Position numbers and translations under genes: made by a program. DNA of 61,561 bases, counting the filler, from Basidioascus undulatus (Eukaryota), in NCBI GenBank assembly GCA_000826855.1. It is 14 parts of 14 records of this genome, joined end to end, with 100 filler letters (N's around TTAATTAATTAA, not from the genome) between each part and the next. Parts side by side here need not be neighbours in the genome. Positions count along the whole stretch, not along the records: positions 58,740 to 61,561 come from JTLS01002635.1; 13 more parts are not named here. One strand, 5' to 3'. Of this stretch, positions 4,061 to 59,805 are shown piece by piece (the stretch's first letter is position 1; each line of letters starts with the position of its first letter). The notes under the pieces were generated by a model. The model was not told where the DNA came from, ran no database searches, and was given only the letters and a program-made list of their open reading frames with translations.

Positions 4061-4168
4061 GACCAGATGGCCGAGTGGTTAAGGCGACAGACTAGAACGC
4101 GTTTCTACATGGTTACTTTGGTCATCTGTTGGGCTCTGCCCGCGTAGGTTCAAATCCTGCTCTGGTCG
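4061..4168 (+). tRNA. tRNA-Ser(AGA) with 26-nt intron (4098-4123)
   Basis: GACCAGA/TCTGGTC acceptor stem, TGGCCGAGTGG A box, ACAGA-CT-AGA-A[intron]A-TCTGT anticodon arm, long variable arm GGGCTCTGCCC, GGTTCAAATCC B box, T5 terminator just downstream. Confidence 0.96.
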
Positions 4169-5779: not shown

Positions 5780-5951
5780 NNNNNNNNNNNNNNNNNNNNN
5801 NNNNNNNNNNNNNNNNNNNNNNNTTAATTAATTAANNNNNNNNNNNNNNNNNNNNNNNNNNNNNNNNNNNNNNNNNNNNTCCAGGTGCGCTTCCTTGACT
5901 CCCCCTTCAGTAAGACACCGTTGACGCTCAACTCTGTTTCGTCCCTCGCAG

Positions 5952-6444
5952 ATGCACCTCACCTACCAGCAGACCCTCTTCCGCTCCTCCCTCACCTCCC
6001 TCCGCCTAGCACAACTCACGACGGGCCATCCCTCCGTTCGTCGACCCGCCTCCACACCAATTGCACCCGCAACGGCCCCTGTACCCGCACCTGCGCCAGC
6101 ACCCGGCCCCGCCCCCGCGCTTCCGGCCGCAGCCCTCTCCTTCTTCCAGCTCTCCACGCTGCAGGAGGCGATCATCGGGCTCTCGCTCCTCCAGCCTACG
6201 GCGCAGCGCGACGCAGCCGTGCGCCAGAGCCCGGCGATCGCGGTCCTTCTGCCGCTGTGCGAGCTTTATGACTCGCATGAGAGCTTCCGGGCGGAGGTGC
6301 AAGCTAGGCGGGTGAGTCGTCGGGTTTTAGTGAAGGGAGACGAGGACTGTGCTGATTGAGGAGAGGGCGAACACGCAGGCTATGTACGAAGACGTCGTGA
6401 GGCGACAGCAGGGGTCGCAGGGGCAGGCTGTGGCAGCCTCGTAG
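5952..6444 (+). CDS. 3' exons of an unidentified protein
   Basis: CAG acceptor before 5952, GC3-rich coding frame, GTGAGT...CAG intron, last exon AMYEDVVRRQQGSQGQAVAAS* (TAG 6442-6444). No family recognised. Confidence 0.55.
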
Positions 6445-7329
6445 GCCTGTTTGCCTGTGCATGGATTTGAACAGACGCGCGTTATAATGCTTCTTGCCGT
6501 CAACATCTGCGTGCGCGCCTTCTTAAGTGAAGATCTCGGTTGACTGTTTCTTTTGCCGAGCAACTTCCCATGAGGTAGGTATCCCGTGTGCTGCCTTGTC
6601 CGTCATATGTCGCTCTGCCGCTCCTCGTCTCGTGCGACTCAGCACAGTCCATCGCTGCCCTCTGGCACAGCTGACTTCACACGCACGTGCAGAAGCCTCT
6701 CGCGCACACACCCACACACCGCGCAAGCAAGTCACTCAAAACACATGCATACACAGGCTGCCAGGCCGGGCGTCGTCGGTTGGGGGGGATCACGTGTAAC
6801 GGCGTAGTGGAGACGACAGCCAAAGAAAAGCAGTATCGGAACAGGCGCCTCGGAGTGCGAGTTTGTCAAACCTCAAGTCGAAAAAGGAGAAACGAGAAAT
6901 GAAAAAGGGTGTAGTAAGAAGAGGAAGAACAAGGAAGAAGAGGACGCGAGCGCAGATGTAAAGCGGAACCGGACAGGCGGGAACGGGGAACAAGATGGCG
7001 TATCACGATCATGACTAGAGAGGCGGGGGAAAGGGGTATGCGGAGAGGAGAAAGTTGCGAGGACATATGGTTTGTTGGTTTGTGTTGTGTGCGTGTGTGC
7101 GAGCTGAGCTGCCGGGACGAACGCGAACGAGGGAGCGCGCGAGAAAAGGGAGTGCAGAATCCTCGACGAGCGGTAACGGGGGGGTGTAAAGAGGGGCGTG
7201 GGAGAGGGGACGCGGCGTGACAGAGACCTAAGCAGCCTGCAGCGGACGGAAGGAAGGGGGAGAGAGCGCGAGCAGCAGCACAGAACGGGGGACGAGAAGC
7301 GACGGGTAGCAACTATGCGACCGCGGCGT

Positions 7330-17408: not shown

Positions 17409-17482
17409 CTCTTCAGGTGAGACTTGAACTCACAACCTCCCGATTAACAGTCGGACGCGCTAACCAATTGCGCCACCGAAGA
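17409..17482 (-). tRNA. tRNA-Asn(GTT), no intron
   Basis: Minus strand TCTTCGGTGGCGCAATTGGTTAGCGCGTCCGACTGTTAATCGGGAGGTTGTGAGTTCAAGTCTCACCTGAAGAG folds into a full cloverleaf, followed by a T-run. Confidence 0.96.
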
Positions 17483-18224
17483 CGATGGCANNNNNNNNNN
17501 NNNNNNNNNNNNNNNNNNNNNNNNNNNNNNNNNNTTAATTAATTAANNNNNNNNNNNNNNNNNNNNNNNNNNNNNNNNNNNNNNNNNNNNAAGGAAGGCA
17601 AGGAGGTGGACATGAGGTGGCAAGGTTTGACAGTTGACGAGGATTGAATAGTTGTTAAGACGTTCATGACACACGAGCTGAATATGAGCTCCTAGAGGTA
17701 CACACATTCACATGCCGGCAGAGATAAGAAGGAAGCAGACCACAGCGATGCTGCACTCAGTCATCTGAGATACATTTTCAATCAACAATTGCATACCACA
17801 AGCACTCCCAGAGACTGCACTGGGTGTATGGGGCCCAGCACCATTCAATATTTACAAAAATGAAGCTCATTGGTTTGCGGCAAGCTGCAAGTTCGCAACC
17901 TTTGCCTTTTGAGCACAGCACCTGTAGCAACCAATATTGATTCATTTGGTGCCTTAATACACTCTTCCAGTCTCTTTTTTGCAGCCAAATTATGTTACCT
18001 TACAGCTTGGCCTGCAATTATCTCTCCACCTGCTGGCAGTCAGCCATTGCAGTTTGTTGCAGCAACCTCATGCTCGCAAAAAAAAAAACTACCACAACTG
18101 GGCATACTCCTCTGAGTCATCTGAACTATCAGACCCACACATAGCCCCAAGTAAGGAACCCACAAATGATACCCAAAAGCAGTTCATGCCCACCTCCCTG
18201 CTGGGTGCATCACTCCATTTCCAT

Positions 18225-20351: not shown

Positions 20352-20416
20352 AGCCCCACGCGGGGGTCGAACCCGCAGCCTTGAGATTAAGAGTCTCACG
20401 CTCTACCGATTGAGCT
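20352..20416 (-). tRNA. tRNA-Lys(CTT), 5' acceptor strand cut off by contig end
   Basis: Minus strand AGCTCAATCGGTAGAGCGTGAGA-CT-CTT-AA-TCTCAAGGCTGCGGGTTCGACCCCCGCGTGGGGCT. Confidence 0.93.
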
Positions 20417-56338: not shown

Positions 56339-58739
56339 ATCTCTTTGGAATCGGACGCACATACTTTCTCGTTAATTGTAGTGATTTTCTTTCGAACTTT
56401 GCACACTGTTTTGGCAGTACTTTCGCTTGTATCATCTTTCTTTTGGGCCGTTCCGCTGCGTCGGAACGTGGTACACTGAGTTTTTTACATTTGTGGCTCT
56501 CTCGGGATGTTTTGGCCTTGCAAGTCTGGACTTGGTTCTTCTATTGCACGATTTGTGTTTCTTTGGAAGTCCGAGTCCGGGCGGTTTGCGCCATTGTTGG
56601 CCAGGTCACTGTCCAACGCCCGACGCATTCGGCAGGGATCAAGTCCGCCAGGGCGTCCGAGCGGCGTTCAAGTTGCCGGCTGGGGAGGACGCGTTAGATG
56701 GTCGCTGGGCTCGCTGGGCTCGTGAGCGAGCGGAGGAAGTTGACGGTCCCTGCCTTCTGGAACATAGTCGTGAGTGGCCCGCCCAGAGGGGTGATGCAGA
56801 AAGGAATGCGAGTTCGAGAACTGACCGTCTTCGTGAGGCGGGGATGCGCTTGCAAGGTGCACGAGAAGAACGGACAAGGTAAGTGTGTGGAACCGTATAG
56901 TCAAGATCGGGACAGGGAGAAAATGTGGTTCAGAGACTGCAGAAGAGAGAATGGGATTACCGCACACCGATTTCATAGAGGCGGCAGAGGAGGAAACACG
57001 GAATGGCAACGATGGCAGCGCGGCGTGCAAGCGCCGCTGCCGCTGCAGTTGCCAGCTCGCTCGGGCAGGCATATGGCATCCCCGAACGACGCATCGCAAC
57101 GTTACCCTACTCACCATGCCATTTGCAAGTTACCCTCAGCCTCTAAAGGCACGCGTGTTATGGCACAATGTTGAACGCTCGAAAGTGCATTTGGGATGAG
57201 GGCAAGCGACCACGGTCGTAGTGTCACACCTGCAGTACTCGTATGCGTTGGCCCGGCACAGGAGCAAGTATATTGACGTACAAAGCACTTCGGATGACCA
57301 TAATGGTATGAGTACCCAGGCAAAGTACAGTTTCACCCGAAAAGGAAATGAGCGAGTCACTTGCCTCTTGCACGTCCAAGCTTCCAACCATGCAGGCTTG
57401 AGGGTCAACACTGTCGACAGCCTTGCCATAGTCCCAGTTCGTGAACGCAGGACCAGTATTTCGTCCGAAATAGAGGGTACAGATATGAGGGAGAGGAGGG
57501 GCCGAGCGGGAGGTTAAAAAAATTAAAACTTGAAGTGGTTGATGCAGGCAGCCTCAGAAGGAAGAGCCAAGGCAGAGAGCTGTGCCAGCCGCAAACGGAC
57601 ATGCGCATTCCTCGCTTTTGGCTTCGTGAGGCAGAGGAGGATGGGAAAAGTTCGAAATGAAACGATGTTGTATTTTATGGTTATAATAGGATAGGAGATG
57701 ACGGTACGTGCGATTATGGTGGAAGGAGGCTGTGGAGGAACCGGGGGCGCCGCTGAGAGCTTCCTCTGGAGGAGGGAGCGCAAGGATCTCGAGTGGGCAA
57801 ATGTCATTAAATCCTAGGAGGCTTCTCAATTTGAGTCTATAAAAGACGGATGGTAAGGAGAGTGGCAATGTTGAGCAAATGAAAAAGGGGGAGCGGGGTG
57901 TCGGGGATCCGACTGCAGCGCGTCCTCTCGTCACGAGGACGAACGAGCTCCAACGCCACAGTCGGAGCTCGCTAAGCAGGCTCAACACGCACATTTATTA
58001 CACTCCCATCCAAATCTTTTTTTGTCAACATAGAGCACCACAACAAGACAAAGAACTCACAACTGTTTATTTGGCCCTCATCCCCAATCCTTGCTACTGT
58101 AATGTTGTAAGACACACTAGCATCCCCAGCATTATAGAGCGTGTGTGACGTCAGTTTCCGTTTCGCGTGGGCGGTCTCGAAGGCGTCGGCTTCGCCCTTG
58201 TTTTGCCGTCGCCGTCGCCGCCGCCGCCACCATCCATCGCATCGCATCGCATGGCCATCGCCATCGCCTGACCGCCCGCCCACAGCCTCGTCGGCCCCTC
58301 TAGCCTCGTTCTCTCTCGCACTTGCATATCACGCACAGCTAGATTGGACACTCGTCTTCTCCTCTGAGGATTCGCGCGCGCGCAGCTAGAAGCTAGACCA
58401 AGAGCGCGCGCGGCTTGAGAAGGAGAAGATAATAGTGGGGTCAGGATGAGCGGTGAGTCAGGGGTGCGGTGGTGTGGAATGCGATGGTGCGGGATGTGAT
58501 GTGATAGGGAGGGTTTGAAGAGGAGGGCGGGCGGGGGAGTGAGCGAAGCGGGAGGAGGGCGAAGCGATGCTCACGCGAGTTGAGAAGACGCTGCTCCTGC
58601 TCGCCCTGCCTGCCTGCCTTGTCCCTTCCGACTTAACGTNNNNNNNNNNNNNNNNNNNNNNNNNNNNNNNNNNNNNNNNNNNNTTAATTAATTAANNNNN
58701 NNNNNNNNNNNNNNNNNNNNNNNNNNNNNNNNNNNNNNN

Positions 58740-58809
58740 TAGTCAGATACTCTACCATTGAGCCAGCCGGCCTTGACCGACGCAGGGATCGAACCTGCAA
58801 CCCCCTGAT
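58740..58809 (-). tRNA. apparent circularly permuted tRNA gene (3' half 58809-58774, 1-nt linker, 5' half 58772-58740); anticodon incomplete, most likely Arg(ACG)
   Basis: Minus strand reads A-TCAGG-GGGTT-GCAGG-TTCGATC-CCTGC-GTCGGTC-A, then A, then GGCCGGC-TG-GCTC-AATGGTA-GAGT-A-TCTGA-CT-A (contig end). The two halves complement each other in the acceptor and anticodon stems. Confidence 0.75.
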
Positions 58810-59612
58810 CTCGACTACCAGCAAGACCAAGCTTACGGTGCGTGATAGTTCTGTTGAAAATTACATATCACTAAAACAGAATAAAAACAAGGTGAAATCA
58901 ATCTGGCTAGTAATGCCGGGCGTTTACCTGATTCACTTTAGTTTGGTCTCTCTTGCCGCAGTTCTTTCTCTCTGACCTTTGTAAATGTTCTTTTTCCTCT
59001 CCTCCACTTCCGATTGAAGTAGTTGATCGACTTTTGCCTTACCTCTTCCGATGCCGCAGCGTATTGCCATGAAGTGCTGGTCAAGGGCAAGAATAGTTTA
59101 TCCCTACGTTCTATGTGTTTCCAATGCATCTTCATGTTCGGGTGCTAAATATGTCATGTTTGTCACGTTACTTGCCATGAGCGGGCGGACAGGGCAAACA
59201 TTGTGCCTTGCAGGTACCGCAGACCTCGCAATCGAGCACAGTTTGCACGAGGGTGTATTGAGAACGGGCGAGAACGTATAGGACGAGATGGGGAAGGGCA
59301 ATGGTGATACAAAGAGCGAAATAGGAGGAAGCTCGTAGCAACCGACAACGAGCCGTGGCGGAAGCGAACAAAGAGGCGAAGAACGGCAGTCAGTATGGCG
59401 AGGGGCGGCACAATTGTATCGGAAGACGGGTTCACAGAGGAAGCCCCATTACGACGAGGGTGGCATGCATGGGTTATCAGCTGAAAGGCAGTCAGGCAGG
59501 TTTCTATGCTAATAAGCTGTATGTGTGGACCCGGCCAGCGTCAAATATATCAAAAGAGGCTCCACCAGGTAATGCGCCTGGGAAGACGGAGGCGCCAAAA
59601 GATGGGCAGGTA

Positions 59613-59707: not shown

Positions 59708-59805
59708 GGGCCTGACCGGGAATTGAACCCGGGACCTCTCCCATACATGCAGATGCATGGGCTTTGCAACCCGAAGGGAAAATCATACGACTAGACCATC
59801 AGGCC
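59708..59805 (-). tRNA. tRNA-Pro(CGG) with 26-nt intron (59744-59769)
   Basis: GGCCTGA/TCAGGCC acceptor stem, TTCCC-TT-CGG-G[intron]T-GGGAG anticodon arm, CCGGG-TTCAATT-CCCGG T arm, T5 terminator. The D loop has C where G18 is expected. Confidence 0.9.

Follow-up and report, generated by a model that had tools for sequence, protein, structure and literature searches.

In the sections consulted of two reviews, from 2014 (PMC3978253) and 2026 (PMC13578239), circularly permuted tRNA genes are placed only in red and green algae, a nucleomorph and archaea, the known examples being those of Cyanidioschyzon merolae, the Mamiellophyceae (Ostreococcus, Micromonas), the Bigelowiella nucleomorph and Thermofilum pendens. 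According to the same sections of the earlier review, the intervening sequence of these genes measures 1–74 bp and an AT-rich region usually lies upstream, 37/38 is the commonest permutation junction in green algae, and the tRNAs mature via a circular intermediate that is opened by RNase P and tRNase Z (PMC3978253). Tandemly duplicated intron-containing tRNA genes are proposed there as an intermediate stage in the evolution of permuted genes (PMC3978253, section 10). Among the titles and abstracts listed by our searches, including literature from 2018 on, there was no report of a fungal permuted tRNA, in agreement with the two reviews and with an earlier reading of the present locus from its sequence alone (the sequence-only reading), which knew of no fungal example. 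A literature search with the sequence strings of the unit described below returned unrelated papers only.

The unit studied here lies in a fungal genome, that of Basidioascus undulatus, within a stretch of 61561 bases that was analysed as a whole and that we call the window. The window is not one stretch of a chromosome; it consists of 14 unplaced contigs chained by 13 linkers: one contig has 23501 bases, the other 13 have 2822–2841 bases and decrease in size along the chain, and all 13 linkers are artificial sequences of 100 bases made up of 44 N, TTAATTAATTAA and 44 N. Features touching 2842–2941, 5780–5879 or the other linkers are artificial. The tRNA-half unit sits at the first bases of the last contig (58740–61561, 2.8 kb, unplaced) and reads on the minus strand in the order leader, positions 38–73 of a tRNA, a single A, and positions 1–34. 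Its parts, and the linker beside it, are as follows:

58810..58850, minus strand: leader, whose last 10–11 nt, (T)GGTAGTCGAG at 58820–58810, are common to most loci of the family
58774..58809, minus strand: tRNA 3' half, positions 38–73, with the B box GGTTCGATCCC at 58795–58785
58773, minus strand: single A between discriminator A73 and G1 (the intervening sequence), also present in multi-copy contigs spanning 58748–58803
58740..58772, minus strand: tRNA 5' half, positions 1–34, cut at A34 by the contig end
58640..58739, no strand: artificial linker (44 N, TTAATTAATTAA, 44 N) joining unrelated contigs

The 3' half (58809–58774) reads A38, TCAGG, GGGTT, a T arm of GCAGG/TTCGATC/CCTGC, GTCGGTC and A73, and the 5' half (58772–58740) reads GGCCGGC, TG, a D arm of GCTC/AATGGTA/GAGT, A, TCTGA and CTA, with positions 35–37 lying beyond the contig end. 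All four stems are paired (acceptor 7/7 with two G–T pairs, anticodon 5/5, T 5/5, D 4/4), and the 12/12 pairs formed between the halves were equalled by 2 of 100000 shuffles of the 5' half. The Rfam tRNA model aligned 58772–58740 with its positions 1–33, cut at the end, at 15.9 bits and E = 1. Upstream of the 3' half, no 5' half was found in the 2.8-kb contig; over the 111 nt upstream, 1134 of 2000 shuffles aligned to the 5' half at least as well as the real sequence, and the D-arm and T-arm motifs did not recur anywhere in the window at ≤2 mismatches; a decayed upstream 5' exon is unsupported in the window, given that the alignment of these 111 nt was no better than that of the shuffles. T runs are present upstream at 58856–58888. 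These results bear out most of what the sequence-only reading had described at the locus, namely a 3' half followed after one A by a 5' half on the minus strand, four stems that all pair (with two G–U pairs in the acceptor), upstream T runs and no 5' half ahead of the 3' half. Its treatment of A34 as the last visible base stood in part: A34 is present, but the break after it is the contig end, followed by the linker.

Compared with the known permuted genes as described in the sections cited above, the fungal unit likewise has its 3' half upstream of its 5' half on one strand, a short spacer, a 37/38 break, AT-rich sequence upstream and no terminator between the halves. It differs from them in its fungal host, in numbering some 20 or more copies where the others are single genes, in having sister units that lack the anticodon arm, and in a spacer of one base without encoded CCA. 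With the proposed tandem-duplication intermediate, as outlined in the same source, it shares a 3' half that abuts the 5' half of the same tRNA and an intron-like sequence before the 3' half, whereas the fungal window contains no recognizable upstream 5' exon. The order of T arm, closed acceptor hairpin and D arm is also that of YrlA (Rfam RF02553), a bacterial Y-RNA-like tRNA mimic, and cmscan aligned 58806–58742 with YrlA model positions 23–88 at 30.4 bits, below the gathering score of 69. This likeness is one of topology only: the host is a eukaryote, and the unit retains the anticodon stem and A34.

Position 58740 is a contig end because the contigs strung together in the window stand almost in order of size and adjoining ones are unrelated, and the stop at A34 is an assembly artefact without biological meaning. 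Three of the 28 contig ends fall in or beside a tRNA, and the assembly therefore tends to break at tRNAs. Across the linker, at 58600–58639 on the minus strand, the adjacent contig starts with ACG and carries, a few bases on, an AGTCGGA that could pair 7/7 with TCTGACT of the 5' half; neither a T arm nor a T run follows AGTCGGA in that stretch, and given that the contigs are sorted by size, the coincidence, although odd for a tRNA expected to read ACG, is probably due to chance. Elsewhere in the window, an ORF of the 23501-base contig resembles a fungal F-box/Sec10-like protein, and its nearest clusters belong most often to Ascomycota, so that a fungal, ascomycete-like source is a reasonable reading.

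Read-derived contigs of two sequencing runs from two studies (X1 and X2) were aligned to 58740–59500. Both runs contain 95% of the contig's sampled words, and a further run (X3), from the same sample as X1, contains a small share of them. The unique, single-copy flank had a depth of 49.5 in X1 and 19.6 in X2, while the following contigs crossed the junction between the two halves:

58748–58803 (positions 44–73, the A, positions 1–26): 56 nt, no other letters, depth 472.7 in X1 and 175.4 in X2, about 9 copies
58762–58803: one other letter, depth 650 in X1, about 13 copies
58751–58803: one other letter, depth 298.3 in X2, about 15 copies

Given a depth of about nine times that of the flank and one-letter variants at 13–15 copies, the junction is genuine genomic DNA and belongs to a dispersed family that numbers roughly 20 copies or more. 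Summed depth over 58740–58817 reached about 6200–7200 in X1 against 49.5 for the flank, a figure inflated by overlapping contigs. Since the assembly itself may have been built from one of the two runs, these data provide at least one independent confirmation, not necessarily two. Misassembly at GGTCA-A-GGCC, which the sequence-only reading had named as an outcome that would overturn it, is excluded by the presence of the junction in contigs of both studies at about ninefold depth.

The copies of this family differ in what precedes them. Among the matches listed, 9 of 39 contigs in X1 and 9 of 40 in X2 matched in part, all of them diverging on the side upstream of the 3' half, and the points of divergence per run were 58804 (one contig), 58816 (one), 58818 (one), 58819 (three) and 58820 (three). 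In eight of the nine partly matching contigs listed for each run, loose ends begin at 58816–58820; at one locus, homology does not begin until position 43/44. Some ten distinct upstream flanks, including the window's own, converge on the leader end (T)GGTAGTCGAG just before position 38, and further upstream only short motifs recur in the leaders (GTAAGC, and TCAC behind an AT-rich stretch). No contig among the matches listed (39 in X1, 40 in X2) diverged at 58772–58774, although matches of about 30 nt or less might escape. The same matches included neither a 5' half behind an ordinary flank nor a 3' half before an ordinary trailer; a contig of the latter kind would overlap the reference by only about 30 nt. 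Across copies the 3' half varies as little as the 5' half, with tRNA parts identical over 42–56 nt in 9–15 copies each and adjoining leaders that differ, and identity of the 3' half and junction alongside differing leaders is what would be expected if the upstream 3' half were itself functional.

On the downstream side, a 45-nt contig of X3 (record 17, depth 60.7) runs from 58781 to 58740 and stops after another 3 letters. What many copies have in common thus extends to position 37, the canonical boundary of the exon, and no further, whereas an intron-less ordinary gene would have carried this contig on into a 3' half. Records 1 (18542 nt), 9 (4220 nt) and 10 (3014 nt) extend kilobases beyond 58740; no second 3'-half piece was found in them among the matches listed, and a conserved 3' exon of at least 31 nt should have caused them to break. 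The copies on these long contigs have diverged (other letters at 5 of 73 and 2 of 41 positions) and could be dead genes. The ends of the junction contig without mismatches fall at positions 26/27 and 43/44, adjoining pair 27–43. Another X3 contig of 93 nt (record 18, mapping to 58752–58814) has first and last 30 letters that coincide, an overlap that indicates a 63-nt cycle, tandem or circular, composed of TCGAG, positions 38–73, the A and positions 1–22 without the anticodon arm. Both ends of the missing segment follow TGGTAG, a hexamer found in the leader and in the D loop, and unequal exchange or template switching between TGGTAG sites would make such a 63-nt unit.

A34 is also present in the multi-copy contig of record 17, and we infer that the single other letter of this contig lies within 58762–58781, the site of a common variant. 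The tRNA is of the A34 type and probably Arg(ACG), as suggested by A34 itself and by an anticodon stem that we take to resemble those of Arg(ACG) tRNAs; the body of the tRNA presumably resembles yeast tRNA-Trp. Ser and Leu are ruled out by the short variable loop, and Ala by C3–G70.

The window also contains four ordinary tRNAs:

4061–4168, plus strand: ordinary tRNA, T run after
17409–17482, minus strand: ordinary tRNA, Asn GTT, T run after
20360–20416, minus strand: ordinary tRNA, CTT, cut by a contig end, T run after
59708–59805, minus strand: ordinary intron-containing tRNA, discriminator C, T5 after, anticodon read as CGG

All four are real and are followed by T4–T6, as the sequence-only reading had maintained in listing four other tRNAs, each with a T run. 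One contig ends 8 nt before the Asn GTT gene (17409–17490), and another ends inside the CTT tRNA (20360–20416), cut at model position 9. The tRNA at 59708–59805 lies about 900 nt upstream of the tRNA-half unit on the same strand; a scan of the whole window at gathering threshold missed it, as did ARAGORN, which in bacterial mode found one of the four. Two of the four carry introns of about 26–30 nt at 37/38. Given that ordinary tRNAs carry introns at 37/38, the splicing machinery that a permuted pathway would employ is in use in this organism.

In eukaryotic tRNA splicing, a G three bases upstream of the cut pairs with position 32 in yeast-type introns. The leader end of the tRNA-half unit offers a G three bases before the cut, opposite C32. 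The leader also contains GTAGTC, which is complementary to G30–C35, and the centroid fold pairs UAGUC with GACUA. The fold energy of the unit is unremarkable compared with that of shuffles (z = -0.77). In the MFE structure, leader ACTATCA (58849–58843) can pair with TGGTAGT (58820–58814), a pairing that competes with that between leader and anticodon region. On the promoter side, an AT-rich stretch and the shared TCAC motif lie upstream of the 3' half.

The most economical account of all these observations is that the family consists of circularly permuted genes for an A34 tRNA, a reading to which the sequence leads us tentatively and at somewhat less than an even chance. A terminator cannot fit into the single base between A73 and G1, and a transcript of the 3' half must therefore enter the 5' half. 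In the maturation that we propose, Pol III would start in the AT-rich/TCAC region about 30–36 nt upstream of position 38, and its transcript would span both halves and the A between them. Cleavage by the splicing endonuclease would follow at two sites, ahead of A38 and behind position 37, possibly with help from the leader, whose G could pair with C32 and whose GTAGTC could pair with the anticodon loop. Ligation of 37 to 38 by tRNA ligase would yield a circle, which RNase P together with either RNase Z or a 3' exonuclease would open at the A before addition of CCA. That the whole A34 (probably Arg-ACG) family of this filamentous-type fungus, some 20 genes, is permuted with a one-base spacer and passes through a circular RNA by means of the ordinary Sen endonuclease and Trl1 ligase is a proposal that we make with considerable doubt. 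The sequence-only reading had suggested a permuted tRNA, probably Arg(ACG). This suggestion has gained a real multi-copy unit, an invariant 3' half, an intron-like leader and a stop at position 37, and has lost the break at A34, which is an artefact. Several points count against permuted genes: the 63-nt units without anticodon arm look more repeat-like than gene-like, a two-base loop (A73 and the A) cannot close the acceptor stem without fraying G1–C72, the fold is no better than that of shuffles, and permuting every copy of a multi-copy essential tRNA family is a demanding history.

An ordinary gene could instead stand behind a conserved 3'-half module, such that leader and 3' half are followed by the A and then by a complete tRNA gene with its own 3' half, a T run and, probably, a copy-specific 37/38 intron. 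The upstream 3' half would in that case be a remnant of tandem duplication that is kept uniform by gene conversion, or else an upstream B-box or leader element that is removed by RNase P. Such an arrangement, which we regard as unlikely though deserving serious attention, needs no new biology, and the window ending at A34 for purely technical reasons fits it, as do contigs that often break in tRNAs (3 of 28 ends). Introns of 26–30 nt at 37/38 are normal here, and copy-specific ones would also explain the stop at 37; yet a 3' half with a trailer occurred in 0 of 39 and 0 of 40 matches listed (short matches might escape), and records 1, 9 and 10 extend for 3–18 kb without a break at a second 3' half. 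A functionless remnant should, moreover, have decayed in some of the approximately 20 copies, but in contrast to the diverged leader, the upstream 3' half shows no more variation than the 5' half.

The high summed depth over 58740–58817, the 63-nt cycle without anticodon arm in X3, the locus with homology only from position 43/44 and the small, unplaced contig that holds the unit would all suit a non-coding, tRNA-derived repeat family, whether a pseudogene array, minisatellite-like units or a small retroposed element, with the real isoacceptor genes located elsewhere and somewhat different in sequence. Neutral repeats, however, decay evenly, whereas the tRNA parts here are identical (42–56 nt in 9–15 copies) next to leaders that differ; the shared block ends at position 37 and not at a tail, and neither an element body nor a poly-A-like tail was seen. 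On balance we consider a repeat family rather improbable. An assembly or chimeric-read artefact at the contig end, which the location of the structure at the very end of a 2.8-kb unplaced contig might suggest, is scarcely credible against a junction found in contigs from two studies at multi-copy depth and with zero differences over 58748–58803.

Other candidates were examined and set aside. A retroelement primer-binding site does not fit, given that a TGG/CCA complement is absent and the match, by eye, spans 36 nt, and an integrase-type duplication of a tRNA 3' end would leave a remnant preceding the flank of the tRNA, not G1. A SINE is unlikely, given diverged leaders and a shared block that reaches no further than position 37. 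A metagenome scan for a T arm, 8–30 nt and a D arm yielded three loci, all of them bacterial or phage clusters of adjacent ordinary tRNAs and not relatives of the unit. Word-index searches returned no predicted ORFs overlapping the unit past A34 (sense frame at near lengths; antisense at near and longer lengths), and a HMMER match in the second sense frame (P0004), a 1033-aa repeat protein unrelated to tRNA, was a chance match.

If the family does consist of permuted genes, it would extend permuted tRNAs for the first time beyond algae and archaea, with their tiny genomes, and would be without precedent as a multi-copy permuted family. It would follow that an opisthokont that depends on TFIIIC and has standard splicing enzymes can express permuted tRNA genes, and standard tRNA finders would miss an essential isoacceptor in some fungal genomes. 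If the 5' half instead enters an ordinary gene, the conserved 3'-half module would be an unusual tRNA leader, possibly the postulated intermediate stage in the origin of permuted genes. As a host of permuted genes, the fungus would also allow circular pre-tRNA processing with a one-base spacer to be studied in an organism that can be cultured.
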